Shown here: positions 15,599-61,090 of the stretch, piece after piece
Layout of the letters: each line of letters starts with the position of its first letter
Numbering within the stretch: position 1 is the stretch's first letter
Source: Sphingobacteriia bacterium
GTDB lineage: Bacteria > Bacteroidota > Bacteroidia > NS11-12g > UBA955
Assembly: GCA_021151535.1 (NCBI GenBank)
Contig: JAGKXC010000002.1
Location: 7,174 to 71,173, forward strand
Direction of reading: 5' to 3'
Length of the DNA stretch: 64,000 nucleotides
Translations under genes and position numbers: made by a program
The notes under the pieces: generated by a model
What the model was told of the DNA's origin: nothing
Databases searched by the model: none
Seen by the model: only the letters and a program-made list of their open reading frames with translations

Positions 15599-15607
15599 TT
15601 AACAAAA

Positions 15608-16468
15608 CTACATCTCAAGCTGAACTTTACCAACTACGAGTCCTGCCCAATGTGCTTGATTTACCAACACTTGTTTACCAACTGAATTTAAGGTATCTGT
15701 TGGTTTTTCCAAAAATGTGTGGGTATGTCCACCCATAATCAAATCGATATTTTGGGTGGTTTGTGCCAGTTTTAAATCGTCTATCTTGGGGGAATTGTAT
15801 TGATAACCCAAGTGAGAGATTACCACCACAAAATCACAATGTTCCACATGTTTAAGATGGTGGGCGTGGTGATTTACAATAGAGATAGGATCTTTATAAA
15901 GTAACCCTTTTCTCATGGGTTCAGCCACCAAATCTGAGAGGTCGATTCCCACACCAATAACGCCAACTTTGCACTTGCCTACTTGATAAGTATTATATGG
16001 CTTAACAATGTCTCTTAAAGGGGTTTGTGATACGTCGTAATTGCAATTTAATAAGTCAAATTGCGCATTCTGATTGAATACATCGGCTAAGTGTTCAGCA
16101 CCTAAATCAAATTCATGGTTGCCGAGTGTTGTAGCTTTGTAGCCAGCCTGGTTCATCCATTGGTATTCTACTTTGCCGCCAAAAAGGTTAAAGTAGGGAG
16201 TACCCTGAAATACATCGCCACAATCCAATAAAATGGAATTGCTATTTGTTTCTCTATCAATCACTGTTTTCAATTGGGTGATCCCCCCTTTGCCAGCGAA
16301 AGTTTTGTGGTTGGCTGGAAAAGCCTCTAAACGAGAATGGAAATCGTTGGTATGAAGAACTGTAATTGTTTTATTGGGCGATTTTGACCAAATTAATTCT
16401 GGTGCAATGAATGATCCGGCACCCAAAGCGAAGGAATTTTTTAGGAAGGTTCTTCTATTTTGATTCAT
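15608..16468 (-). CDS. metallophosphatase domain of a UshA-type 5'-nucleotidase, Tat-signal periplasmic protein
   Basis: Twin-arginine signal (NRRTFLKNSFALGAGS) and calcineurin-like motifs (LHTNDFHS, GDVFQGT, GNHEFD, GGHTH). Confidence 0.8.
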   Translation of the reverse strand: MNQNRRTFLKNSFALGAGSFIAPELIWSKSPNKTITVLHTNDFHSRLEAFPANHKTFAGKGGITQLKTVIDRETNSNSILLDCGDVFQGTPYFNLFGGKVEYQWMNQAGYKATTLGNHEFDLGAEHLADVFNQNAQFDLLNCNYDVSQTPLRDIVKPYNTYQVGKCKVGVIGVGIDLSDLVAEPMRKGLLYKDPISIVNHHAHHLKHVEHCDFVVVISHLGYQYNSPKIDDLKLAQTTQNIDLIMGGHTHTFLEKPTDTLNSVGKQVLVNQAHWAGLVVGKVQLEM

Positions 16469-48992: not shown

Positions 48993-49273
48993 TTTATACA
49001 AAGATACTGCTAGCAGGGGTATAGAATTGAAAAAATGAGTGAAATGACTTGGTTTAAGAAATATACCACTCGCAGTGGTATGTAGGTTTTTCAAGGGGTT
49101 GCGGTGATTTGACGCGGTAATTTTATTAAAATTTAGTATTTGTTTGTATGGGTAATTTGCATGTTTAAAAACATATTTTTGTCGAAAAAAATCAAAAAAT
49201 CATAAATATTATTGACAATAATTTGTAATAATAGTTGTTAAAATTTTTATTTGTAGTTAAATATCTAACTAAT

Positions 49274-49909
49274 ATGAACAATCCAGAAAATGAATTGGTT
49301 AATTTACCTAAGAAGCGTGGAAGGAAACCCGGTTCTAAAAACAAGGTGAAATCTACCAGAAGACCGAAATCTGCTGCGTATTTAAGCGCATTTTCGTTTT
49401 TAGAAAAGGAGATTCAGGCTTTATCTAATTCTCTAAAGAAGGCAACTGAAAAAGCCCAAAAAGAGATTGAAAAGATTGAAAAGAAAAATGCCAAAGTAGC
49501 AGATGCTATCAAGGAGAAGGCTACAAAATCGATTGCTATTTGGAAGGAGCGCGCCAAAGAATATAGAAAGAAATCTATGGCTGCTGGAAAAGGCAAAAGG
49601 GGTAGAAAGCCGAAAGAAGTTGAAAAGTTTGCTGGTAAGCCTGGTAGGCCAAAAAAATCTACTTTGTTTAGAAAAGGTGGAGGAAGAAGAAGGGCAGGTG
49701 AATTAACTAAAAAAGATATTATTATTCAGTATATGACAACCGCTCCAAAACCATTGTCATCCTCTGATTTGATTCACGAATTGTTTATTCAGAGTGGTGA
49801 AAGAGATAAGAAGAAATTTTCACAGGGAATTTACACTACTTTAACCCAGATTTATAAGTCTGGAGAATTGAAGAAAGATCCCGAGGGTATGATTTCTATC
49901 AACAAATAA
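49274..49909 (+). CDS. histone H1-like nucleoid protein: Lys-rich N-terminus with three AT-hook motifs + C-terminal winged-helix
   Basis: PKKRGRKPGSK, GKRGRKPKE and GKPGRPKKS each match the AT-hook core (R)GRP / RGRKP. A KEIEKIEKK coiled-coil-like segment follows. The C-terminal ~70 aa (DIIIQYM...LSSSDLIHEL...IYTTLTQIYKSGELKKDPEGMISINK) resembles the linker-histone winged-helix pattern. Confidence 0.55.
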   Translation: MNNPENELVNLPKKRGRKPGSKNKVKSTRRPKSAAYLSAFSFLEKEIQALSNSLKKATEKAQKEIEKIEKKNAKVADAIKEKATKSIAIWKERAKEYRKKSMAAGKGKRGRKPKEVEKFAGKPGRPKKSTLFRKGGGRRRAGELTKKDIIIQYMTTAPKPLSSSDLIHELFIQSGERDKKKFSQGIYTTLTQIYKSGELKKDPEGMISINK

Positions 49910-49911
49910 GC

Positions 49912-50730
49912 TTACTTCTGTTTTGAACAGAATATAAATCGGGGGTTACCTGAATAGTCAGTGATTATTTTGGTAGCCCCTATTTTTTTGAATAAATCTG
50001 CGGTTTCGTTGGATAATAGGCTGTTTATTTCCAGCCAAATATCAAGTTTGCCAATTTTTCTTTCCGCGAGATTTGCAATTTTTTTGTAAAAAATTAAAGG
50101 ATTTTTGTCTTTAACAAATAAAGCTATATGAGGTTCGAAATTTAAAACGTTTTCATTGATGTTTAATTTTTCGAATTCAGAGATATAAGGAGGGTTTGAA
50201 GTTAGGATGTTTAGGTTGTTATTTAAGTTTTGTATTTCTAATAAATCTTGTACCTTAAAGTCCACCTCTAATTGTAAGTTTATGGAATTTTGAATGGCGA
50301 TATCAATAGCCCCTTTTTGTATGTCAATTCCATTTATATACCACTTTGGGAAGTATTTTTTCAACAACAGCGGTATGCATCCACTTCCTGTTCCAAGGTC
50401 CAATAATTGATGAGAATCTGTGCTGCTCTGATAGTGATTTTTCATTAATTGGCATAGTTCTTCAGTTTCAGGTCTAGGAATCAATGTGAATTCATTTACC
50501 TGTAGTTCAATCTCACCGAAGAAAGCTTTCTGAAAAATATATTGTATGGGTTTGTTCGCCCGTAAATCTGAAAGCCAGCGGCTAGCGAAACTTTCCCATT
50601 GCGCTTCTTCGGCATCTAATAATGCGGGTAAGATCCAATGGCTATAGGCCTGTAAAGTATCTGGTTGAAAATCGCCCGAAAAAAAAGATTTGATAAATGC
50701 TTTTGCTTGTGCGGGTTTATTATCTACCAT
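49912..50730 (-). CDS. prmC: release-factor glutamine N5-methyltransferase
   Basis: LDLGTGSGCIPL (SAM motif I) and the NPPYI substrate motif. Confidence 0.85.
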   Translation of the reverse strand: MVDNKPAQAKAFIKSFFSGDFQPDTLQAYSHWILPALLDAEEAQWESFASRWLSDLRANKPIQYIFQKAFFGEIELQVNEFTLIPRPETEELCQLMKNHYQSSTDSHQLLDLGTGSGCIPLLLKKYFPKWYINGIDIQKGAIDIAIQNSINLQLEVDFKVQDLLEIQNLNNNLNILTSNPPYISEFEKLNINENVLNFEPHIALFVKDKNPLIFYKKIANLAERKIGKLDIWLEINSLLSNETADLFKKIGATKIITDYSGNPRFIFCSKQK

Positions 50731-50755
50731 GCTACAAACCTATACATGAGTTTGT

Positions 50756-53594
50756 TTAGGGCAAAATGGTTATGATGTTTTTTTTGTGATAATTTCTGAA
50801 TTGTGAATCTGAAGCTTGGGCATAAAGGATGTAATTTCCGGGTGGTAGGTTCAACTTTGCGATATTTTGTAAGGGCAGAGGATTGAAGGGGTCTACCCAT
50901 TGTAATGGAACGATATAACTGATGAATTTGCCTGTTAAGGTGTAAATTAATGCCTGAAATTGGGTGATTTGGAAATTTTTATTAAAAGAAATGATAGGGA
51001 ATTCTAGGCTATTGCTATATGAGAAAATGGGTTTATTGACATGAATCCATTGCTGATTGTTGGGTGGAGAAATGCTGGGTGATTCTGCTAAATTTCCTGG
51101 AGATCCATAATTATTTACAGTGATGTTAGAACATTGTTTATTGTTCACCGGTTCAGGAAGAGGGAGGTAACAACTACTTATCCAAGAACTTGGTAAAAGT
51201 CCATTGTTGTTGATATTTAAGCGCGTTAGAGAAATTCCTTTTGTTTCACTCAACATGGGATGGTGCCAATTTTGATGATAGGCAATTCGATCAATAATTT
51301 GTTGAGATTTTCGATCAATTAGTTGTAGAATTCCTTTTTCTGCCAGCAGATTTTCCATACTGTAAGAGAATTTGAAATTTTCAAATGGGGCAGATTGAAA
51401 TTGGCGATATAATTTTTGGCTATTTTCTGAGATAAGCCATGTTTGGTTGCCGCCCATGTGGGATTGGATTTCGCTTAAAGGAATTACAAACTGAAGTAAA
51501 CTGTCTTCACCATTAAAGTATTGAATTTCAATATCATCTGTTTTGAAACTCTTTTTGGAAGTATTGGTAATTTCAATGAAATCCGGAAAACCCTCTTGGT
51601 TGTTAAACATTATTTCACTGAATTTGATGTTTTTGGTTTCACTGGGTTGAATAAATTGAGCCGATACCCAGTAGATTGTTTGCGGACTTGCGATATTGTT
51701 ACTGCAATCTTGGAGGTTAGAAATTTGTAGAATTATATTAGATGGACAATTATTAAGTAAATCTTCTAATGATTGGTACTGGTTTTCTTGAAAATTAAAT
51801 GGATTTGTGATTTGATTATTATATAAGATATCGATTTTGGCAGTTGTGGAGGATTGTTGGGATATTTGAATATTTGTTTCAGGAATTTCGCAAATTTGGG
51901 AGGAATCATGGGTGTTTTTTAGTTGAAGTTTGATGCTTTGCCATTGAGTTGAATCCATAGGGAATAACAGCGTGATTTGTAGGGAGTTTCTATTTAATAT
52001 TGATGACATGATGCGGTTTTCAGGTGGACAAATTTTTTGTTTTTCAGATGATTCAGCTAATGGTGATCCGCCTGTATTTTGGTTGTTCTGCCAATTTAGG
52101 ATGTTGATACAGAAGAGTTTCTGGTTGGTTTTTTCAATGCTGTATCCGCCGTTATTATATGGCGACGTAAAATCGGAATTTACATAGGGAATTTGCACCA
52201 ATATTTCTTTTTTGTTATTTGAAATGGTGAGTGAATCGCTTGTGGTGTTAAAAGTTGGCCAAGGGGAGACGGGCAGTAGCTGTTCTTTTGGGAATGTTTG
52301 CCAAAGTGCTGAGTCTTTGGCGGGAATTAGCAGAACAAAACCTAAAGGATTCAACCATTGGTTTTTGGTAGGGAATCCTGTTGTGTATCGGTCGCTAATG
52401 CGCAACGAGTCAAGCCAATAACCTTTGTTTGTTAGGTTTTTTAGTTCTACGAATTGGGAGTTTGGCAGGTTGCCTTTAGGGGGGGAGGGTTTGTACATGA
52501 TTTCAGTAACAGCGAGCATGTTGGGTGATAAGTTGTTGCTGCATCGATGATGGAATATTGTTGTTTGTTCAGAGTCTATAGAATTGCCGGCCGTATCCTG
52601 AATGCCGAAAAATTGAATTTGGAGGGATTGGTTGCAGAATGTGGCGCATGAATCCAATAATAGGCTATTGGGGGCTATTTGGTTGGTTTTGGAAATGTGG
52701 CGGAAGGTATTTCCATTGATCCGTAAGCTACAGATTTTGTTTTGTGGGAGTTGAACGGTTTCTGTAAATTCAATTTTTAGGCTATTGTTATTGTAAGAGC
52801 GTATTTTGGATACGGCCGGCGGGAGTGTGTCTTTCCAATAATTTCCAACATAAATATTGGATATTTTGGTTTTACCTGCGGCGGTTGTTCCAGACTGCAA
52901 CAGTTCTAATCCCCAATGGGTGAACTGGGAAATTTGCTTTAATTGGTTCGAAAATTTGATGTTGATTTGGTTGACTGAGCTATCGGGTAATCGCCAGAAA
53001 ACTTGGAGTTGAGAATCTAAATTCAAGCATTTATAGATTAGGGAGTTACTGCTTTTGTTGAATAGGGATTTTGATTGAAACAGGATACTATCTATTTGAT
53101 TTTTTCTCTGGATGATCTTTACATTATCTTCTTTTCCACCCATTTCCAAAAGGTAGCCGTTGTGCAACAACGAATCTGTTAAAAGTGCAATTCGCAATAG
53201 ATTCACACTGGATGGGTTAAAGCCTTGATATAGAAAAGCGTCTGATTCGAACTTGTAGGTATGTAATTGGAATGTGAATTTGGAAATTTGAAGTTGACTA
53301 GATGCGGGTAAACAGCCTGAAATTTCGAAATATTTGTTGTTTTGTTGCGAGCAAAAGCTGCTGGCTGGGATCGCTTTTATGAGCTTAAAATGCAGAGAAT
53401 CCCAATTGGGGATTTGTGCAAATGTGAAATTATGATAAAGGCAAAATATGCCAAAAAATAGAAAAAATAATAGATTGGAGGGGTTAAAACGATGGAAGAA
53501 TTTGTATGGGAAAGTTTTGGGCGATAAATTTCTGCAGCTTTTATGTGGGTTTATCTCGCTTCTTATGTCAACTGTATATTTGTTATTAAGCGAA
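50756..53594 (-). CDS. very large secreted multi-lamin-tail-domain (LTD) protein, probable T9SS cargo; start codon unresolved
   Basis: At least two LTD signatures (AVTEIMYKPSPPKGNLPNSQFVELKNLTN; FSEIMFNNQEGFPDFIEITNTSKKSF). Signal-peptide-like LLFFLFFGIFCLYHNFTFAQ. A C-terminal segment (ALIYTLTGKFISYIVPLQ...LPPGNYILYAQ...KKNIITILP) resembles a T9SS CTD. The ORF is open to 53866, but no ATG/GTG/TTG lies between the GT2 stop (53595) and the signal peptide. Confidence 0.55.
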
Positions 53595-54791
53595 TTATGC
53601 GTTGTACTTTCTTTTTTTCCAACTGAATTGTAGGAACGGCGAAACAAGTCCCAATATGGGTAAGAATATGGTTTGAAAAGAAGATGCGATTGGAATTCTG
53701 AGATATTGGATTGTAAACCAATATCTGATTGCGAAGAAAGTTTTGTATGGGTGTTTTGTGGGGTATTGATTCCACAGGAGTAAAGTAGTTCCGAAGAGCC
53801 AATCTGTAAAGGCTTTGAAGGCCAAAGGTAATAACGCGTAAATGCCATAACCGGCATACACGGCATAAATGGTTAATCCCCAGATGGTTAGTAGTATGCC
53901 GGCCAAAAATGCCTGTTCTACAGCCGATTTTTGCGATTTTTGCAAAAAAGTTTTCTTGAACCAACGTAATCTTTGGTTCAAGAAATCGGAAATATGGGAT
54001 TGAGTTATGGTAGTAACAATTGCTTTAGGGTCGGCGTTAAATGAAATGCAATTGGGATAATGCATATGGAATTTTTCGGCGGTGAATGTGTCATCGCCAC
54101 TGGCGATTTTTAAGTGATTCTGCATTCCCCCCAATTCAAGGAATGTTGCTTTGGAATAGCAAAGATTGGCAGCGTTGGCAAATCCCAAATGCTTCTTGGT
54201 TGTTTTCTCCCAATTAAGTGCAATTAAAAATTGATTTTCTAGAAGTTCATAAGTAGAAAGTAGGTGTTTTGAAGGGGCAAATTCATATCTCACACGTCCG
54301 ATTATCATCTTGATATTTGGTTGATTCAGAATGATACTTGCAAAACTTTTAATCCAATTTTCTGGCAGCCTACAATCTGCATCCGTTGTTAGAATCCAAT
54401 CATAAATTGCGCTTTGAATTCCCAATTGTATTGCAGATTTTTTGCCGATTTGGATATTGGATAAGTGTTTTACCTGAGATAGGGAATGGGTTTTAATCCA
54501 CTGATCGATAATTTTTGGACCATAATCGGAGCTATGGTCGTTCACAAATATCAATTCCCAATCGCCCTGAAATTGAAGCGCTAATAATGAATTTAATAAA
54601 GGTTGTAAACGATTTTGCTCATCACGATAGGCGATGATGATGGAAAAGCTGGGTTTGACGGATGAAGGATGCGTGTTGTAAATCTGTTTGTTTACTGGAG
54701 TTCTATAATATCGAAATTCGGATACGATAACGCGAATCCACCAAGCCTGATACAGGATTAAAATTGCAATATTAATGGCGATCCAAGCCAT
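53595..54791 (-). CDS. membrane-bound family-2 glycosyltransferase (N-terminal TM, GT2 core, C-terminal multi-TM)
   Basis: FSIIIAYRDEQNRLQ, TDADCRLP (DxD-type) and QRLRWFKK. Four C-terminal TM helices. Confidence 0.75.
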   Translation of the reverse strand: MAWIAINIAILILYQAWWIRVIVSEFRYYRTPVNKQIYNTHPSSVKPSFSIIIAYRDEQNRLQPLLNSLLALQFQGDWELIFVNDHSSDYGPKIIDQWIKTHSLSQVKHLSNIQIGKKSAIQLGIQSAIYDWILTTDADCRLPENWIKSFASIILNQPNIKMIIGRVRYEFAPSKHLLSTYELLENQFLIALNWEKTTKKHLGFANAANLCYSKATFLELGGMQNHLKIASGDDTFTAEKFHMHYPNCISFNADPKAIVTTITQSHISDFLNQRLRWFKKTFLQKSQKSAVEQAFLAGILLTIWGLTIYAVYAGYGIYALLPLAFKAFTDWLFGTTLLLWNQYPTKHPYKTFFAIRYWFTIQYLRIPIASSFQTIFLPILGLVSPFLQFSWKKRKYNA

Positions 54792-55272
54792 GTTCCGCTA
54801 GGATTTTCTTTTCAATGGAAGAAGTAGAAAAGCCGGGAAGAAATTCGATTGTTTTTACTTTGCCACCATGCGATAGTACCCAATCTGCACCTACAATGTT
54901 CTCGATAGAATAATCAGCGCCTTTAACCAAAACATCAGGGGTTAGATATTCGATGATTTCTTTAGGGGTGGGTTCTGAGAAAATAATCACCGCGGAAACA
55001 AAACCAAGGGCAGCCATTACCCTGGATCTACCGTATTCAGATTGTAAAGGTCGAGCAGGCGATTTTTCAAGGGCCCGAACACTTTCGTCGGAATTGAGGG
55101 CTACGATTAAAGCATCGCCTAGCTTTGAAGCTTCTTCTAAATATGCAACATGACCTGCGTGAAGGATATCGAAGCAACCATTGGTAAAAACAACTTTTTT
55201 ATTGGCTGTTTTCAAGGAATTTCGCCATTCTAAGGCTTGTTCCCAGGTGTATATTTTTTCTTGACTGATCAT
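54772..55272 (-). CDS. RfaE domain-II-type nucleotidyltransferase (D-glycero-beta-D-manno-heptose-1-phosphate adenylyltransferase-like cytidylyltransferase fold)
   Basis: VFTNGCFDILHAGHVAYL, IVALNSDESV, PDVLVKGADY. Overlaps the downstream GT2 by 20 nt. Confidence 0.75.
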   Translation of the reverse strand: MISQEKIYTWEQALEWRNSLKTANKKVVFTNGCFDILHAGHVAYLEEASKLGDALIVALNSDESVRALEKSPARPLQSEYGRSRVMAALGFVSAVIIFSEPTPKEIIEYLTPDVLVKGADYSIENIVGADWVLSHGGKVKTIEFLPGFSTSSIEKKILAEHGLDRH

Positions 55273-55295
55273 GGGGATGGATGTGTAAAGGTAAT

Positions 55296-56345
55296 TTACT
55301 GCTTACTTAAATCGTGATTGGCTGTGGATTTTTCAATTTTCTGAATTTCAACCATATAAAGTATGTAGGCAATTCCCCCAAAAATAATCATTAAGAGGTT
55401 ATTGTAAGCTGCTGAAAACATGCCAAAAGTTTGGCTGTTGGCACCTGAGAATCCGTATACATACTCCAATCCAAAAGCGATAGCCGCCCAAACTCCAGCG
55501 CCTGCTGGTAAAGGAATGATGATGCCAAATGCTGAGAACATCATGAATGCCAAAGCCATGGGGATAGTACTCATTTGGGTTGCAGGAATTGCTTGCGTTT
55601 GGCAGTACATACCCAACCAATAACCAATCCAGATGCCGATACTCATTAACCAAAAGGTTACTGGTTTCTCCAAGATGAAAAGGGTTTTAAAACTTTGGGT
55701 GAATTTTTTGATGGTGCCAAGAATTCCTGTAGCTGTTTCTGTTTCTTTGTTATTCTTTGGTTGCAATAAGGGCAATATCCATTTTTTTCTAGCCCAAACG
55801 AAGATTAAAATCACTACAGTAATAAGGGCGATGGTGCCTAATAGTAAGACCCAAAACGGAAATGTATATAATTTTTCAATCAAGGGTTTAAATGGCTTAA
55901 GTAGAAAGCTACTCATTTGAGAATATTGTAGAATTAAACTCAATAATGCCATTAAAGACAACATAATTAAATCAACAAGGCGTTCCACAACAACAGTTCC
56001 GATGAGGGTTTCAACCGGTGCTTTCTCACTTTTTGCTGCCATTGCACTTCTGGCAACTTCCCCGCCTCGTGAAGTGGCAACATTTACCAAATATCCGCTT
56101 AATACGGCATAAAAAGATCTTCTTTTATTGAGTGGAAAGCCCAGTGGTTGTGTAAGTTGATTCCATCTGGCTGCTCGCAAATAATGCGCAATTAACATGG
56201 GGAAAATGCCAATGATAATCCAAAGTATGGAAGCATTTGTTAATGTTTCTGCTGTAGATTTCCAATCGGTTTTTTGCCAAATCCAATAAAACATGGCTAC
56301 ACTGAGCAACAATATCAATGCTTTAATAGCATATTTTTTTATCAT
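55296..56345 (-). CDS. lysylphosphatidylglycerol-synthase-TM-region (flippase-like, UPF0104) membrane protein
   Basis: 8-TM protein with the LRAARW...SGYLVNVATSRGGEVAR pattern characteristic of the LPG_synthase_TM family. Confidence 0.65.
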   Translation of the reverse strand: MIKKYAIKALILLLSVAMFYWIWQKTDWKSTAETLTNASILWIIIGIFPMLIAHYLRAARWNQLTQPLGFPLNKRRSFYAVLSGYLVNVATSRGGEVARSAMAAKSEKAPVETLIGTVVVERLVDLIMLSLMALLSLILQYSQMSSFLLKPFKPLIEKLYTFPFWVLLLGTIALITVVILIFVWARKKWILPLLQPKNNKETETATGILGTIKKFTQSFKTLFILEKPVTFWLMSIGIWIGYWLGMYCQTQAIPATQMSTIPMALAFMMFSAFGIIIPLPAGAGVWAAIAFGLEYVYGFSGANSQTFGMFSAAYNNLLMIIFGGIAYILYMVEIQKIEKSTANHDLSKQ

Positions 56346-56428
56346 ATAGACAAAAGGTTGAAAGGGTTGGATGCGAATCTAATCACAATTTTAAGGATAG
56401 GCAAGGATGCCTCCCCGTTTCATTGTTG

Positions 56429-56779
56429 TTAAAGAATCACCTTGTTATTTCGGTCTGGGAAAATATTTCTTGGTTGATGAACAGATAATTCATCTTTATT
56501 TAACCAAGTGAAGGTCATGATAATTAATTCGTCGCCAACCTGACCTTTTCTTGCGGCAGCACCATTTAATCCAATTATTCCTGTTCCTCTTTCGCCTGCA
56601 ATGATGTAAGTTTCGAATCTTTCGCCGTTGTTGTTGTTGACAATCAACACTTTCTGATTCGGAACCATACCCGCTGCATCTACCAAATCCATATCAATGG
56701 TAATGCTACCAGTGTAGTTAAGTTCGGTTTGCGTTAAACGAACGTTGTGAATTTTGGCTTGTAAAACCTCGATAAACAT
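56429..56779 (-). CDS. panD: aspartate 1-decarboxylase
   Basis: MFIEVLQAKIHNVRLTQTELNYTGSITID... Confidence 0.9.
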   Translation of the reverse strand: MFIEVLQAKIHNVRLTQTELNYTGSITIDMDLVDAAGMVPNQKVLIVNNNNGERFETYIIAGERGTGIIGLNGAAARKGQVGDELIIMTFTWLNKDELSVHQPRNIFPDRNNKVIL

Positions 56780-56858
56780 GTGGTGCAAAGTTAATGACCT
56801 TTTTATGATCTAACACAATTTCCTCATTTACAGCCGCGAAAGTGCTATTTTTGAAGCA

Positions 56859-57464
56859 ATGCAAATATCCTCACAGATAGTTTCAGATGCGGTAGAGGCT
56901 TTGTCGGGCTTTCCTGGAATAGGAAAAAGAACGGCTTTGCGATTGGTTATGTATTTGTTAAAGCGCCCAGAAATGGAGGTTGTTCGCTTAGCAGAATCAT
57001 TAATAAAATTAAAAACCGATTTGTTTTTATGCAAATCCTGCGGCAATGTGAGTGATGAAGAGATATGCAGTATTTGTTCTAATCATGCCAGAAATAATGG
57101 TGTTGTTTGCGTAGTTGAAGATTTTAGTGATTTGATGGCAATAGAATCTACCAATCAATTTGGAGGTAGATATCATGTTTTGGGTGGGTTAATTTCGCCG
57201 ATGGAAGGGATAGGGCCTGATGATTTGAATATTATGTCGCTTGTAAATCGAATTGAGCAGGATAATATTCAAGAGATTTTATTAGCGTTATCAGCTACGG
57301 TAGAGGGTGATACAACGATGTTTTATATCGCCAAGAAAATAAAAGACACTGGTGTGAAAATAACTTGTATTGCTCGTGGAATATCTGTGGGCGGAGAAAT
57401 TGAATATGCAGATGAAATTACTTTGGGACGTAGTATCTTGCAACGCACTGAGTATCAAGTTTAA
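56859..57464 (+). CDS. recR: recombination protein RecR
   Basis: HhH (LSGFPGIGKRTALRL), a C4 zinc finger (CKSCGNVSDEEICSIC) and a Toprim domain. Confidence 0.9.
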   Translation: MQISSQIVSDAVEALSGFPGIGKRTALRLVMYLLKRPEMEVVRLAESLIKLKTDLFLCKSCGNVSDEEICSICSNHARNNGVVCVVEDFSDLMAIESTNQFGGRYHVLGGLISPMEGIGPDDLNIMSLVNRIEQDNIQEILLALSATVEGDTTMFYIAKKIKDTGVKITCIARGISVGGEIEYADEITLGRSILQRTEYQV

Positions 57465-57470
57465 TAAGGG

Positions 57471-59414
57471 TTGAAAATGCATAAATTATCCGTAATTATA
57501 GTAAACTACAACGTAAAGCATTTTTTGGAGCAGGCATTGTTGTCTGTTGAAAAGGCGATTACGCATGTAGATACTGAAGTTTGGGTAGTTGATAATTGTA
57601 GCGTTGATGGCAGTGTGGAGATGGTAGCGGATAAATTTCCTTGGGTAAAAATCATGGCCAACAAGGAAAATGTTGGGTTCTCTAAAGCCAATAACCAAGC
57701 GATAAGAGCGAGCGAATGTGAATATGTATTGTTGTTAAATCCAGACACAGTGGTATCTGAAGATACCTTTAAAAAGTGTGTAGATTATATGGATGTACAC
57801 GGTGATGTGGGTGGTTTGGGAGTGAGAATGATTGACGGGAAGGGTAAGTTTTTGCCTGAAAGTAAAAGGGGGTTGCCTACACCTTCGGTTGCATTTTATA
57901 AAATGACGGGATTGGCTACCATCTTCAGCAAATCGCGGAAGTTTGGTCGTTATCATTTGAAATATTTATCGGAACATGAAACCCATGAAGTGGAAGTGTT
58001 AAGTGGCGCCTACATGCTAATGCGTAGTAGTTGTTTGGATGAAGTGGGTTTGTTAGATGAGGATTTCTTCATGTATGGTGAGGATATTGATTTGAGTTAT
58101 CGGATCTTGAAAGGTGGGTATAAAAACGTATATTTTGCTGATACTACCATCATTCATTATAAGGGCGAAAGTACCAAGAAGCGGAGTGCGAATTATGTGA
58201 AGGTGTTTTACAATGCGATGGTTTTGTTTGCCGAAAAACATTATTCATCACGCATGGCGGGTTGGTTTTCGGTATTGATTAACATTGCCATTTACCTTCG
58301 AGCTGGATTGGCATTTGGGGTAAGGCTTGCGCAAAAACTTTGGCTGCCACTATTAGACTTGTTGCTCATTGTAGCGGGATTTGCTTCCATTGCTTGGTAT
58401 TGGGAGATGTACAACAAATATGTGCATGGTTTTTATCCAACAGATTATTACCAAGTACACATGCCCATTTATGCGTTATTTATGATGGCGTTTGTTTATG
58501 TTAGTGGCGGGTACGATGAGCCCGTTTCTGCAAGAAGGTTGTTAAGGGGTAGTGTAGTTGGAGCAGTTGGATTGTATGCCGTTTATGCCTTTTTGCCAAA
58601 GGATTATCAGTTCTCGCGCGCCATTTTGGCTTTGGGTAGTTTCTGGGCGATAGCCGCTTTCTTCATTTTGCGTTTTTTAGCTAAATTCTTCGGTCTTTCC
58701 CAATTTCTACTGGATGAAGACAATAAGCGAAGGGTTATTTTGGTTGGCGATGAAGATGAATGTAATCGGATAGCTGGTTTGCTCCAAAAAACTAGGGTTT
58801 ATACAGAAATTGTAGGCAGGGTATCTTCTGGTAAAGAACTGCATCAACATGGATTTGTAGGTAGTATTGAGCAGTTGGCAGAGGTAGTTGCGGTTTATAG
58901 GGCAAATTTGATAATTTTTAGCGGCAAAGATATTTCCTCATCTGAGATTATTCAGCAAATGGGACAATTTCAAGACTGGGAAGTACAAGTGAAAATCGCC
59001 CCGGAAAAAAGTGAGAGTATTATTGGTTCGGATAGCAAAAACGAACCGGGAGAGTTATTTACAGTGGAAGTGAAATACCATTTATCTCAACCGCATACCA
59101 TGCGTAAAAAGCGAATCATGGATTTATTGATTGCTTTGTTGTGTTTGGTAATATCACCGGTTTTGATTTTGAAAAAAACTGGAAGATTGTATTTGGCGAA
59201 CTGGTTGTTGGTAGTTTTTGGTATGAAAACATGGGTAGGTTATTCCTTGCCAGAATCTGGAAAATCGGCCTTGCCGAGATTGAAGAAATATGTTTTAGAA
59301 GCATCAGGTAGGTTCTACAAAACCAATTTCGAGTGGGATGCTTGTTTGAATTATGCCAAGGATTATGAGCCTTTGATGGATTTGGAATTGGTGTGGAATA
59401 GGATTTGGCAATAG
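57471..59414 (+). CDS. family-2 glycosyltransferase with long C-terminal polytopic membrane extension
   Basis: LSVIIVNYNVKHFL, DNCSVDGS, NPDTVV GT2 motifs, then ~350 aa with several TM segments. Confidence 0.7.
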   Translation: MKMHKLSVIIVNYNVKHFLEQALLSVEKAITHVDTEVWVVDNCSVDGSVEMVADKFPWVKIMANKENVGFSKANNQAIRASECEYVLLLNPDTVVSEDTFKKCVDYMDVHGDVGGLGVRMIDGKGKFLPESKRGLPTPSVAFYKMTGLATIFSKSRKFGRYHLKYLSEHETHEVEVLSGAYMLMRSSCLDEVGLLDEDFFMYGEDIDLSYRILKGGYKNVYFADTTIIHYKGESTKKRSANYVKVFYNAMVLFAEKHYSSRMAGWFSVLINIAIYLRAGLAFGVRLAQKLWLPLLDLLLIVAGFASIAWYWEMYNKYVHGFYPTDYYQVHMPIYALFMMAFVYVSGGYDEPVSARRLLRGSVVGAVGLYAVYAFLPKDYQFSRAILALGSFWAIAAFFILRFLAKFFGLSQFLLDEDNKRRVILVGDEDECNRIAGLLQKTRVYTEIVGRVSSGKELHQHGFVGSIEQLAEVVAVYRANLIIFSGKDISSSEIIQQMGQFQDWEVQVKIAPEKSESIIGSDSKNEPGELFTVEVKYHLSQPHTMRKKRIMDLLIALLCLVISPVLILKKTGRLYLANWLLVVFGMKTWVGYSLPESGKSALPRLKKYVLEASGRFYKTNFEWDACLNYAKDYEPLMDLELVWNRIWQ

Positions 59415-60591: not shown

Positions 60592-60601
60592 TTAACTAAG
60601 T

Positions 60602-61090
60602 TTGTATAGTATGATTCAGAGAATTCAATCCATCTATTTATTGGCGGTTACGCTCATTGGAATTATTTTATTTTGGGTAGATCCCATCTATGCCCAATTT
60701 GATGTGAATACTGGGATTGGACAGGCTTTAAGCTTTACACGCAGTTATTCATTTCCGGATAACCATGAAACGGCAAATGCGGTATATAGCGTAGATGTTC
60801 TGTCGATTATGTTATTGTTTTTCATTACCGTGATTCCATTTTTTACAATTTTCTTTTTCAAAAAAAGAAAGTTACAATTGAATCTTAGTCTATTGGTTTT
60901 CGGTATAACGCTTTTGTATTGGGCTGTTTTATTTGTTCGATTTTTTGCCGTTTCTTCTCAATACCACGGACAGTATCATTTTGGTATTCAGATTATTTGG
61001 CCCATTGCTTTGCTCTTACCTACGGTGATGGCCTATTTTACAATTAAGAGAGACGAGGCGATGATTAGTAATATGGATAGAATTCGTTAA
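60602..61090 (+). CDS. DUF4293-like small polytopic membrane protein
   Basis: MIQRIQSIYLLAVTLIGIILF... with four TM segments. Sits 10 nt downstream of the kinase. Confidence 0.45.
   Translation: MYSMIQRIQSIYLLAVTLIGIILFWVDPIYAQFDVNTGIGQALSFTRSYSFPDNHETANAVYSVDVLSIMLLFFITVIPFFTIFFFKKRKLQLNLSLLVFGITLLYWAVLFVRFFAVSSQYHGQYHFGIQIIWPIALLLPTVMAYFTIKRDEAMISNMDRIR

Follow-up and report, generated by a model that had tools for sequence, protein, structure and literature searches.

Five co-directional minus-strand genes, in the order panD, flip1, rfaE2, GT2m and LTD, are best explained as three units, each conserved on its own, that were strung together in one lineage and are probably transcribed from the panD promoter; we put the probability of this reading at roughly 0.55. 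The genes lie within a 64,000-nucleotide stretch of DNA, referred to throughout as the window, and the locus was compared with 168 related loci. The argument draws on the genes present and their domain families, on fold class and co-occurrence patterns, on a stop-free overlapping frame and on the distribution of a promoter motif, all of them directly observed. The five genes constitute three separately conserved units and not one co-conserved pathway. The most unusual feature of the locus, and its new element, is the apparent start of the LTD gene deep (about 250 nt) inside GT2m.

Gene organisation and synteny

The coordinates and profile matches bear out the five minus-strand genes and the domain families put forward in an earlier, sequence-only reading. 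Its spacings of 83 nt between panD and flip1, 23 nt between flip1 and rfaE2 and −20 nt between rfaE2 and GT2m are also correct, but its spacing of about 0 nt between GT2m and LTD is not, these genes overlapping by at least 254 nt. The divergent neighbour recR (56859–57464, plus strand; TIGR00615, 231.1 bits) is separated from panD by the proposed 70 bp if panD is read from the TTG at 56788, and by 79 nt from the ATG at 56779, the start chosen by gene callers. The run of genes does not end at LTD, as had been supposed: prmC, encoding release-factor glutamine methyltransferase (49912–50730, minus strand), follows 25 nt downstream and always adjoins the LTD gene on the same strand. Its product scores 172.4 bits with TIGR03534, below the cutoff of 199.1, and 142.4 bits with the HemK family model TIGR00536, above the cutoff of 115.5; prmC lies outside the five-gene module. 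The window holds about 55 genes, is about 93% coding and has a median same-strand gap of 24.5 nt, and the close spacing of the five genes is usual for it, not special.

The Bacteroidota −7 box, TAnnTTTG, is present 4–37 nt upstream of 14 of the 55 starts in the window, where about 1.2 would be expected. It stands just upstream of panD (56786–56793, 6 nt from the ATG), recR (56846–56853, 5 nt), prmC (50735–50742, 4 nt) and dxs, and was not found in the 37 nt that precede the ATG of flip1, rfaE2, GT2m or LTD. As judged from these motifs, co-transcription of the five genes is plausible, and they are probably transcribed from the promoter directly upstream of panD.

Twenty relatives in the lineage retain divergent recR followed by panD-flip1-rfaE2-(flip2)-GT2m-LTD-prmC, together with HATPase-GT2big upstream and x-dxs-GATase-tsaB downstream. 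The three units, A (panD, flip1 and rfaE2), B (GT2m) and C (LTD with prmC), are joined only in this one uncultured Bacteroidota lineage and are separate outside it. Within the lineage, housekeeping neighbours (recR, prmC, dxs, tsaB and others) are equally syntenic, and the mixed housekeeping genes surrounding the locus form a conserved block of about 13 kb.

The panD-flip1-rfaE2 unit

The panD gene (56429–56779, minus strand) encodes an aspartate 1-decarboxylase of 116 residues from the ATG (Asp_decarbox, 154.8 bits; TIGR00223, 146.7 bits); the listed open reading frame runs on to the TTG, and identical contigs carry the 116-residue call. The spacer between panD and flip1 contains an 18-nt block, TTGTGATTAGATTCGCAT (56371–56388, minus strand), which is near-invariant across the window and two related loci (L174 and L175), while the spacer diverges on either side. 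This region is predicted to form a small hairpin (fold z-score −2.1), and the block is possibly an internal regulatory site. The flip1 product (55296–56345, minus strand; 349 residues) is a polytopic protein of the MprF flippase-domain family (LPG_synthase_TM/UPF0104/PplT), matching PF03706 with 104.1 bits and TIGR00374 with 70.2 bits, with some six to eight hydrophobic segments by hydropathy; it matches 3312 cluster representatives at E ≤ 0.001. The rfaE2 product (54772–55272, minus strand; 166 residues) is a nucleotidyltransferase resembling HldC and RfaE domain II. It scores 55.9 bits with CTP_transf_like and 179.0 bits with TIGR02199 (rfaE_dom_II), slightly below the cutoff of 181.5. Its closest solved structure is 5x9q, a putative cytidylyltransferase (E = 3.7e-30), and it shares 67–93% identity with its 120 best-scoring homologues.

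The triad recurs widely, usually as panC-panD-flip1-rfaE2. Of the metagenome loci with distant flip1 homologues, 59 could be tested on both sides: panD-flip1-rfaE2 is found in 29, flip1-rfaE2 in 6, panD-flip1 in 3 and flip1-flip2 in 5, with panC and a Glyco_transf_5 gene upstream. The conserved partners of rfaE2 are flip1 and panD (rfaE2-flip1 in 35 of the 59 loci) and not GT2m, which is present in 2 of 80 flip1-homologue loci; LTD and recR were each found in none of the 80. The normal order of the unit is a glgA-like gene divergent from panC-panD-flip1-rfaE2. The metagenome contigs are termed Bacteroidota-like on gene context (the glgA-like/panC arrangement).

The membrane glycosyltransferase

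GT2m (53595–54791, minus strand; 398 residues) is, from its motifs and fold, a membrane-embedded GT2 enzyme of the hyaluronan synthase/NodC/PgaC type. It scores 68.3 bits with Glycos_transf_2 and 23.9 bits with Glyco_transf_21. Its best NCBIfam match is PgaC_IcaA, but the scores are far below the family-specific cutoffs (54.8 versus 422 for PgaC and 35.8 versus 550 for NodC). The protein carries D,D,D,QxxRW motifs, and across 82 sequences D85, D137xD139, G232-D-D and Q273-R-x-R-W277 vary little or not at all. In an AF2 model (pLDDT 91.7), helices span residues 2–30, 287–312, 316–342 and 361–386; a simple hydropathy scan marks three of these four regions (about 1–24, 290–314 and 366–384). The top Foldseek matches in the PDB are the Chlorella virus and Xenopus hyaluronan synthases, PcManGT and BcsA, and GtrB, ArnC and DPMS are absent from the top 50. 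The polyprenyl-phosphate transferase architecture suggested earlier is rejected on the invariant QRxRW and the hyaluronan synthase-like fold. This fold is equally compatible with a secreted polymer and with a glycolipid.

The rfaE2/GT2m overlap, 20 nt in the window, is 4–20 nt throughout the lineage, as would equally be expected of genes in one genuine pathway. In 68 homologues from Cytophagales- and Flavobacteriaceae-type genomes, the other four genes are absent within 10 kb of GT2m, and the contexts are divergent ruvC and GT2m-SpoIIE-CE4 deacetylase-GT28-like-DAG kinase-TatD, or ruvC..flip2-GT2m. The flip2 gene and the second LPG_synthase_TM gene found in loci L085, L087 and L089 are homologues. 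A locus from another lineage, L107, has flip1-flip2-(HU/SPOR)-GT2m, and flip1 lies upstream of GT2m in all relatives of the window; a functional link between flip1 and GT2m, and hence a partly unified module, is possible.

The LTD protein and its probable start inside GT2m

The LTD gene (50756–53848, minus strand) encodes about 1030 residues, with two stretches matching PF00932 (48.1 bits); what had been called a giant multi-LTD protein is neither giant nor multi-repeat. An N-terminal extension of about 125 residues is followed by a signal-like segment, the two LTD domains and, at the C-terminus, a degenerate domain resembling CHU_C. The better-scoring LTD (lamin tail) domain is encoded at 51278–51646 on the minus strand (residues 741–863 of the 1036-residue open reading frame), and hydropathy reveals one hydrophobic signal-like segment, residues 126–144, ending in FAQ. 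T9SS C-terminal domain models do not match the window protein; its final 85 or so residues align with orthologues, one of which (L087) passes the Pfam CHU_C model at 29.7 bits (cutoff 27). LTD orthologues were found only in the lineage of the window, and those in flip2-bearing loci have a classical signal peptide at their very start (M...AQ|F).

Between the GT2m stop (53595) and the signal peptide-like segment (about 53414–53491) there is no ATG, GTG or TTG. Upstream, the LTD frame stays open as far as the ATGs at 53848, 53857 and 53866, giving an overlap with GT2m of 254–272 nt and a putative dual-coding region (53595–53866, minus strand) in which frame 0 encodes the 3′ end of GT2m and frame +1 the 5′ end of LTD. 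The ATG at 53848 occupies a conserved alignment column. In all 18 flip2-less loci of the clade, spanning 30–66% GT2m identity, the last 224–280 nt of GT2m contain no +1-frame stops, while the first 950 nt or so contain 13–27. None of 68 control homologues without a downstream LTD gene has this stop-free frame, their last +1 stop lying no more than 178 nt from the GT2m end. Shuffling of synonymous codons gave probabilities of 0.005–0.18 per locus of finding no stop. Most flip2-less loci have lost the canonical starts close to the signal peptide, whereas loci that keep flip2 have an ordinary ATG and signal peptide for LTD, and +1 stops in GT2m. The peptide encoded by the overlap is of odd composition and weakly conserved, and third-position divergence within the overlap is reduced only moderately and not in all pairs. 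Since the LTD frame stays open and begins at an ATG of conserved position, the sequences point to a real long overlap. The tight coupling of GT2m and LTD is real in this clade.

Interpretation

In what follows we infer substrates and flippase activity, the existence of an operon transcript and the translation of the overlapping stretch. PanD serves pantothenate synthesis, and the flip1-rfaE2 pair may activate a sugar- or polyol-phosphate that is used to modify the envelope in a process involving lipid translocation. Working at the inner face of the cytoplasmic membrane, GT2m would be a small inverting transferase that draws on UDP-hexose or UDP-HexNAc. Its product would be a β-glycosyl lipid or a short glycan associated with lipid or membrane, which a flippase-like protein would present on the outer leaflet, after the logic of HexSDF and GpgSDF. 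With flip2, the usual partner of GT2m, lost in this subclade, flip1 is the sole candidate flippase. The LTD protein would be exported by Sec and probably by a T9SS-type route. In the flip2-less subclade its gene appears to have lost its own start and to open at a conserved ATG 197–272 nt inside GT2m; with such a start, GT2m and LTD would necessarily be co-transcribed and their expression coupled. The GT2m product may be linked biochemically to the LTD protein.

Were the genes one dedicated pathway, the nucleotidyltransferase would supply an NDP-sugar or NDP-polyol, the GT2 enzyme would transfer it to a lipid or polyprenyl phosphate, and the flipped product would anchor or modify the LTD protein. 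Co-directionality, the lack of an internal −7 box, the two physical overlaps and the order retained in 20 relatives speak for this, as does Porphyromonas gingivalis, where T9SS cargo is attached to the glycolipid A-LPS (PMC5053529). The comparisons bear the single-pathway reading out only in part, and we hold it to be very unlikely, given the partners of the nucleotidyltransferase outside the lineage, the 68 loci in which GT2m lacks the other four genes, a fold unlike that of GtrB, ArnC and DPMS, the equal synteny of housekeeping neighbours and the restriction of LTD orthologues to one lineage. At the other extreme, the string may reflect genome compaction alone, its genes functionally unrelated, the +1 frame untranslated and LTD starting at a non-canonical codon near the signal peptide. 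Such an origin would suit the dense coding, the short median gap (about 25 nt), the conserved housekeeping block and the odd peptide with its modest third-position constraint. It is quite improbable in view of the 18 of 18 stop-free frames against 0 of 68, the single ATG column, the lost canonical starts and the ordinary starts, with +1 stops, where flip2 is kept.

Alternatively, GT2m might polymerise and extrude a β-linked glycan, a PNAG-, chito-oligosaccharide- or hyaluronan-type product, with LTD as an extracytoplasmic partner and the flippase-like proteins as accessories; this arrangement would account for the gene overlap. The PgaC_IcaA match, the proximity of the fold to hyaluronan and cellulose synthases, the CE4 deacetylase adjoining a Cytophagales homologue and the large exported β-rich protein encoded directly after, and overlapping, the synthase gene are consistent with this. 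The roughly four transmembrane helices of the AF2 model are fewer than in channel-forming synthases, however, and the family-specific scores, the lipid-related neighbours elsewhere (DAG kinase, a GT28/MGDG synthase-like enzyme and an MprF-like flippase) and the lack of an LTD protein beside the 68 homologues make polymer synthesis rather unlikely. We favour the concatenation of three units.

Comparison with known systems

Modules combining a lipid-directed synthase with a flippase have been described, and the earlier view of the combination as undescribed does not stand in full. HexSDF (PMC10128005) and GpgSDF (PMC12713373) are glycolipid systems, and PplT is found fused to glycosyltransferase GT-A/GT-B domains (10.1101/2022.03.11.483950). 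The idea of a membrane sugar transferase that acts with an MprF-type flippase on an envelope lipid or glycan fits these systems, though the five-gene co-conservation of a single pathway fails. In other genomes GT2m with a second flippase, or with the CE4 deacetylase, GT28-like and DAG kinase genes, recalls HexSDF and GpgSDF; the likeness is incomplete in the window, where a deacetylase was searched for and not found. On the polymer reading, the CE4 deacetylase beside the Cytophagales GT2m homologue is placed as are PgaB, IcaB and NodB, and the LTD gene after GT2m is comparable in position to BcsB after BcsA.

Gene content and spacing of the locus

HMM scans of the five minus-strand open reading frames lying between 50756 and 56788 identified, in order, panD (Asp_decarbox, 154.8 bits; TIGR00223, 146.7 bits), a flippase-like gene, flip1, a nucleotidyltransferase gene, rfaE2, a membrane glycosyltransferase gene, GT2m, and an LTD gene. 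The flip1 gene (55296–56345) encodes a 349-residue polytopic protein of the MprF-flippase family (LPG_synthase_TM, PF03706, 104.1 bits; TIGR00374 'flippase-like domain', 70.2 bits) and rfaE2 a protein of 166 residues (CTP_transf_like, 55.9 bits; TIGR02199 rfaE_dom_II, 179.0 bits). The 398-residue GT2m product matches Glycos_transf_2 at 68.3 bits and Glyco_transf_21 at 23.9 bits, its top NCBIfam match being PgaC_IcaA at 54.8 bits, and the LTD open reading frame, of about 1,030 codons, gives two LTD matches (48.1 bits).

The coordinates of the open reading frames bear out the spacings of 83, 23 and −20 nt noted from the sequence alone for the first four genes, as well as the divergent spacer of about 70 nt to recR; at the other end, prmC follows on the same strand only 25 nt past the LTD gene. 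The five genes had been noted as tightly packed. Coding sequence makes up some 93% of the window, however, and neighbouring genes on one strand are separated by a median of 24.5 nt, so that such packing is the genomic norm and therefore no evidence of a functional unit. This is a general caution for genome scans: in a streamlined genome, close gene packing is a weak sign of common function. Scans of the whole 64-kb window revealed neither tRNA genes nor an Rfam family at the gathering threshold, and a homologue search of the same 64 kb found no deacetylase, GT28-like gene, DAG kinase, panC, ruvC or flip2, the second flippase-like (LPG_synthase_TM) gene present in some relatives. Short metagenome contigs from samples of freshwater type carry identical copies of the locus.

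Conservation of gene order

A GT2m profile scanned against one genome per GTDB species identified 80 loci, whose open reading frames were searched with the window proteins. Twelve of these, with GT2m identities of 30–40% and labelled as Flavobacteriales, Bacteroidia or Bacteroidota MAGs, keep the order GT2big–recR <> panD–flip1–rfaE2–GT2m–LTD–prmC–..–dxs, where GT2big is a larger GT2 gene beside recR and <> denotes divergence. The same order was found in eight more loci, reached through homologues of flip1 (down to 39% identity) and of GT2m (58–66%). In three of the syntenic loci (L085, L087 and L089), flip2 lies between rfaE2 and GT2m. Among the GTDB species representatives, the GT2m matches reach no more than 40% identity, and the source species is therefore probably not among them.

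The kept block far exceeds the five genes, running from a histidine-kinase-like gene through GT2big, recR, the five genes, prmC, an open reading frame of 210 residues, dxs and GATase to tsaB. Such lineage-wide macro-synteny takes in unrelated housekeeping genes and cannot by itself prove a five-gene pathway. Two of the less familiar genes in the neighbourhood may be described here. The plus-strand gene at 57471–59414, which in this lineage always lies beside recR and a HATPase_c gene, encodes a 647-residue protein with an N-terminal GT2 domain; its residues 294–566 match only the first 278 of the 445 positions of TIGR03025 (polyprenyl glycosylphosphotransferase), and the Bac_transf catalytic domain is absent from it. 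An open reading frame of ~210–224 residues (49235–49909, plus strand), which separates prmC from dxs and runs opposite to them, is found in every relative of the lineage and has no significant Pfam match.

Outside the lineage the string comes apart. The remaining 68 GT2m homologues, from Cyclobacteriaceae, Cytophagales, Flavobacteriaceae and similar groups, are 27–38% identical to GT2m and retain its invariant residues, including a C-terminal W-K-x-R; in all 68 loci, panD, flip1, rfaE2 and the LTD gene are absent within 10 kb of the GT2m homologue. The Cytophagales and Cyclobacteriaceae loci (L016–L084; for example, L063 9336–14143) have the arrangement ruvC <> GT2m–SpoIIE phosphatase–CE4 polysaccharide deacetylase–GT28-like transferase–DAG kinase–TatD, the deacetylase lying two genes past the GT2m homologue in most of the Cytophagales loci, and this string is a candidate amino-glycolipid cluster. 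The Flavobacteriaceae-type context is ruvC .. C23–GT2m, in which C23 is homologous to flip2 (phmmer E-values of 1e-10 to 1e-24; the L085 flip2 matches LPG_synthase_TM at 50.1 bits). In another lineage, L107 (1395–5583) and L135 (1896–4901) show rsmA <> flip1–flip2–(HU-CCDC81/SPOR-domain protein)–GT2m-like, with neither panD nor rfaE2. This arrangement hints that both flippase-like proteins can go with the GT2, and some tie between the flippase-like proteins and GT2m is therefore possible.

Distant flip1 homologues (~30% identity) from a 50%-cluster library were used to scan metagenome contigs, giving 59 loci that were testable on both sides. These comprise panD–flip1–rfaE2 in 29 cases, flip1–rfaE2 in six, panD–flip1 in three, flip1–flip2 in five and none of these in 16. 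Upstream of the triad there is usually a panC gene (Pantoate_ligase, 326 bits), together with a Glyco_transf_5 gene that points the other way; among the varied metagenome loci L091–L170, roughly one in two has the string glgA-like(Glyco_transf_5) <> panC–panD–flippase-like–RfaE-II-like (for example, L104 6611–8496). GT2m is present in two of the 80 metagenome flip1 loci, and the LTD gene and recR in none of the 80. The panD–flip1–rfaE2 string is a widely conserved triad in its own right.

Conservation of the five-gene order thus holds for the lineage of the window, where the order is kept in 12 plus eight loci, whereas beyond it panD–flip1–rfaE2, (flip2)–GT2m and LTD–prmC part company. The sequence-only reading had seen in the five genes a minimal pathway for a lipid-linked sugar, with its flippase, coupled to an LTD surface protein. 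As observation this was largely right, and an operon is plausible, but the pathway reading finds only partial support, and the units are joined only in the window's lineage. They are therefore separate, and the view that suits the locus best is one of three conserved units, panD–flip1–rfaE2, (flip2)–GT2m and LTD–prmC, strung together in one streamlined lineage.

The rfaE2 gene and its constant partner

HldC, or RfaE domain II, is the D-glycero-beta-D-manno-heptose 1-phosphate adenylyltransferase. The rfaE2 product resembles it in its TIGR02199 score, which extends over 139 residues, and in its nearest solved structure, 5x9q (E-value 3.7e-30); cytidylyltransferases acting on ethanolamine-phosphate, glycerol-3-phosphate and choline-phosphate are more distant. 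It differs in falling just under the equivalog cutoff (2.5 bits below 181.5), in standing alone with no kinase domain and in adjoining panD and a flippase-like gene rather than LPS-core genes. Classical Bacteroides LPS is reported to be free of heptose, and the substrate of rfaE2 may therefore differ from that of the heptose enzyme. The 120 best-scoring homologues of rfaE2 are 67–93% identical to it, against ~40% or less for GT2m in syntenic relatives, which suggests a housekeeping-type enzyme; the labels of these 120, where given, are mostly just Bacteroidota MAGs and add no broader context.

The nucleotidyltransferase had been paired with the GT2 in one pathway. Its constant partner proves to be flip1, not GT2m. 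A beta-alanine-modified lipid made by panD, rfaE2 and flip1 together was considered and rejected, since panD is as a rule preceded by panC and the profile scores of rfaE2 are those of a nucleotidyltransferase for sugar phosphates. The literature was searched for bacterial LTD proteins and for RfaE-II in Bacteroidota, and nothing specific was found. The flip1–rfaE2 pair adjoining panCD is widely kept, apparently has no described function and is amenable to study in cultured species.

The open LTD reading frame extends into GT2m

The gap between GT2m and the LTD gene had been put at about zero, and this does not survive closer analysis. No ATG, GTG or TTG lies in the window between the GT2m stop codon and the segment of the LTD protein that resembles a signal peptide, and the LTD frame, which is +1 relative to GT2m, is open back into GT2m. 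A gene caller placed the LTD start at a TTG 53 nt inside GT2m. Because a canonical start is missing downstream of GT2m, public calls of the LTD gene are inconsistent: it is started after the signal peptide in L174 (7427), is cut off in L090 (11845) and is missing altogether in L086 (11565–13950).

Comparison of the loci lacking flip2, 18 in number (the window, L005–L015, L023, L086, L088, L090, L174 and L175), reveals a consistent pattern. In every one of them, the +1 frame of GT2m contains 13–27 stop codons over the first ~950 nt but is free of them over the last 224–280 nt, and in every one a +1-frame ATG, formed by a Tyr codon TAT followed by G, occupies the same alignment column. The ATG codons of the window that lie in the LTD frame inside GT2m are at 53866, 53857 and 53848 (minus strand), and the LTD-frame peptide encoded in the overlap at 53595–53848 (minus strand) reads MAFTRYYLWPSK... 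In contrast, a stop-free tail is found in none of the 68 homologues without a downstream LTD gene, the last +1 stop being 4–178 nt from the end of GT2m. The three loci that keep flip2 have several +1 stops in the GT2m tail, and their LTD gene opens with a normal ATG 37–40 nt past GT2m, leading directly into a classical signal peptide, M...AQ|F.

To gauge how readily a stop-free tail would arise by chance, synonymous codons were resampled with the GT2m protein fixed. The probability is 0.005–0.18 per locus, and the joint value over about eight diverged subgroups is of the order of 1e-9 to 1e-10. In most close pairs, but not in all, third codon positions have diverged less within the overlap than upstream of it. 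The sequence context of the internal ATG contains no recognisable initiation signal.

Read most simply, these sequence comparisons would place the start of the clade's LTD protein inside GT2m. A +1 frameshift yielding a GT2m–LTD fusion is less likely, the conserved ATG at the head of the open frame favouring internal initiation; non-canonical initiation of the LTD protein is likewise less probable, as it leaves the open +1 frame unexplained. We give a probability of roughly one-half to the full proposal of internal initiation, according to which the LTD gene of an uncultured Bacteroidota clade would have given up its own start and would be translated, out of frame, from the conserved ATG 197–272 nt inside the 3′ end of GT2m, making this a genuine and maintained long same-strand overlap. 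The output of the LTD protein would then be tied to that of the synthase, and the protein would carry a cytoplasmic leader of ~70–125 residues ahead of its signal sequence, a leader that might steer export to the site of glycan or glycolipid synthesis. Conserved long gene overlaps are rare in bacteria and are usually dismissed as annotation errors. The present one has unusually clean comparative support, 18/18 versus 0/68, and is mis-annotated by current gene callers. An apparently maintained long overlap of the synthase and surface-protein genes is the surprising element of the locus.

Transcription signals

Generic scans for sigma-70 promoters and intrinsic terminators performed at chance level in the window. 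The Bacteroidota −7 box, TAnnTTTG, shows no overall enrichment (83 occurrences versus 88 expected); 4–37 nt upstream of start codons, however, it occurs at 14 of 55 starts versus ~1.2 expected, a strong enrichment. Examples are at 15603–15610, 48999–49006, 50735–50742 and 56786–56793 on the minus strand and at 56846–56853 and 60597–60604 on the plus strand. The distance from box to start is 6 nt for panD, 5 nt for recR, 4 nt for prmC and 6 nt for dxs. Six of the 14 boxes are only 4–6 nt from the start, which suggests that many mRNAs in this genome may be leaderless or nearly so.

For flip1, rfaE2, GT2m and the LTD open reading frame, the 37 nt preceding the ATG contain no TAnnTTTG, the nearest one upstream of rfaE2 being 106 nt away, inside flip1. 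The pattern of boxes would fit a single unit that extends from panD through the LTD gene, with independent initiation possible at prmC. In the panD–flip1 spacer, an 18-nt block, TTGTGATTAGATTCGCAT (56371–56388, minus strand), is almost invariant in the window and in its two nearest relatives, L174 and L175, with divergent spacer sequence around it. It can fold into a 5-bp hairpin and may be an internal operator, promoter or regulatory element.

The LTD protein and its export

The LTD protein contains two LTD domains preceded by an N-terminal region of ~300 residues that is β-rich and has no family match. In the window, a single hydrophobic segment, residues 126–144, ending in FAQ, follows an extension of ~125 residues; the orthologues in flip2 loci have classical N-terminal signal peptides. 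The last ~85 residues of the window protein align with the C-termini of orthologues that are weak matches to the T9SS sorting domain of type B, but the FSPxNDG motif is degenerate. The orthologue in L087 scores 29.7 bits with CHU_C (cutoff 27) and 30 bits with TIGR04131 (cutoff 35), and the window protein matches no CTD model even at E ≤ 5. A single-sequence AlphaFold model of the LTD protein, with a pLDDT of 31, was discarded. From these features of the sequence, the protein is likely to be exported, and dependence of its export on the T9SS is plausible.

GT2m resembles hyaluronan synthases

Alignments of 9, 18 and 82 homologues were used to define the motifs of GT2m. The residues D85, S87, D89, D137-A-D139-C, G232-D-D, Q273-R-x-R-W277-x-x-K and W391-K are invariant or nearly so, and Q273-R-x-R-W277 is invariant in the 82 sequences. 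The D,D,D,QxxRW pattern is the signature of the cellulose, chitin, hyaluronan and PNAG synthase branch of GT2. The 82-sequence alignment yielded a confident AlphaFold model (pLDDT 91.7, pTM 0.90), in which an N-terminal transmembrane helix, a GT-A domain, an interface helix bearing the QRxRW motif and three long C-terminal helices can be seen, with about four transmembrane helices in all. Searched against the PDB with Foldseek, it retrieves first the Chlorella-virus and Xenopus hyaluronan synthases (E-value 3e-14, TM-score 0.66), then the membrane mannosyltransferase PcManGT and then BcsA. The top match is 7sp8 (TM-score 0.66), and hyaluronan synthases fill the top 13 places.

Assignment of GT2m to the polyprenyl-phosphate GT2 enzymes of the GtrB, ArnC and DPMS type is contradicted by the presence of QxxRW and by a fold nearest to the hyaluronan synthases. 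No GtrB, ArnC or DPMS chain is among the top 50 Foldseek matches in the PDB; when a GT2m profile is compared with PDB sequences, these enzymes match only the generic N-terminal GT-A half (~115 residues), so that class is not resolvable by sequence. Together, the ranking of folds and the absence of these enzymes from the top 50 argue that GT2m is synthase-like. Its product would be either a short glycan or polymer, or a glycosylated lipid as in the related GT21 enzymes.

Comparison with known systems

GT2m shares with the class I hyaluronan synthases, NodC, PgaC/IcaA and BcsA the D, DxD, GDD and Q(R)xRW motifs and the arrangement of N-terminal transmembrane helix, GT-A domain, interface helix and C-terminal transmembrane helices. 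It is nevertheless only 14–18% identical to these processive enzymes and smaller, with about four transmembrane helices in the model, and it scores under every curated family cutoff (54.8 versus 422.3 for PgaC_IcaA and 35.8 versus 550 for NodC). BcsA is the cellulose synthase and BcsB its periplasmic partner, the two being fused in some species, and the coupling of the GT2m and LTD genes recalls such fusions. In both cases, a membrane GT2 gene is followed by the gene of a large extracytoplasmic, membrane-anchored protein; the LTD protein has no sequence or domain similarity to BcsB, and the likeness is purely positional.

In Porphyromonas gingivalis, T9SS cargo is attached to anionic LPS (PMC5053529, PMC4804311), and the anchoring of surface proteins by a glycolipid is an accepted idea. 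The LTD protein would be like this cargo in its putative signal peptide and putative C-terminal β-sandwich domain, and its L087 orthologue passes the CHU_C (type B CTD) cutoff. It is unlike it in that the window protein matches no CTD model and nothing ties GT2m to synthesis of the A-LPS type.

The closest parallels are with glycolipid synthase/flippase systems. An aminohexosyl glycolipid of Clostridioides difficile is made by the three hexSDF products, namely a synthase resembling GT28/MGDG synthases, a polysaccharide deacetylase and a flippase similar to MprF (PMC10128005). In Pseudomonas aeruginosa, glucosaminyl-phosphatidylglycerol is made by the products of gpgSDF, which are a synthase of family GT4, a deacetylase and a flippase of the UPF0104 family (PMC12713373). 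A preprint on PplT describes the flippase domain as stand-alone in Bacteroidetes and fused elsewhere to GT-A and GT-B glycosyltransferases (10.1101/2022.03.11.483950). Both flip1 and, in relatives, flip2 match PF03706/TIGR00374 over their full length. Unlike MprF, flip1 has no aminoacyl-PG synthase domain, and its flippase role is putative; a nucleotidyltransferase partner is absent from the common PplT architectures of the preprint.

The window resembles HexSDF and GpgSDF in having the gene of a putative membrane-lipid sugar transferase beside a stand-alone LPG_synthase_TM/UPF0104 flippase-like gene, and the Cytophagales GT2m homologue lies near a CE4 deacetylase and a GT28-like enzyme, which are the HexD and HexS families. 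The differences are also clear. The synthase of the window is a QxxRW-type GT2 rather than a GT28 (HexS) or GT4 (GpgS) enzyme, a GT28-like gene being found only near the Cytophagales homologues; the 64-kb window contains no CE4 homologue at E < 1e-3, unlike the two systems with their operon deacetylases; and the window string has a nucleotidyltransferase and panD interposed and an exported LTD protein attached. Nevertheless, the partners of GT2m across Bacteroidota (flippase-like proteins, CE4, GT28-like enzyme and DAG kinase) match the synthase–(deacetylase)–flippase logic with another synthase family. By this analogy, the GT2m unit is a putative GT2-type relative of these systems, and such a Bacteroidota counterpart of HexSDF and GpgSDF would be a candidate route to new envelope glycolipids or short glycans.
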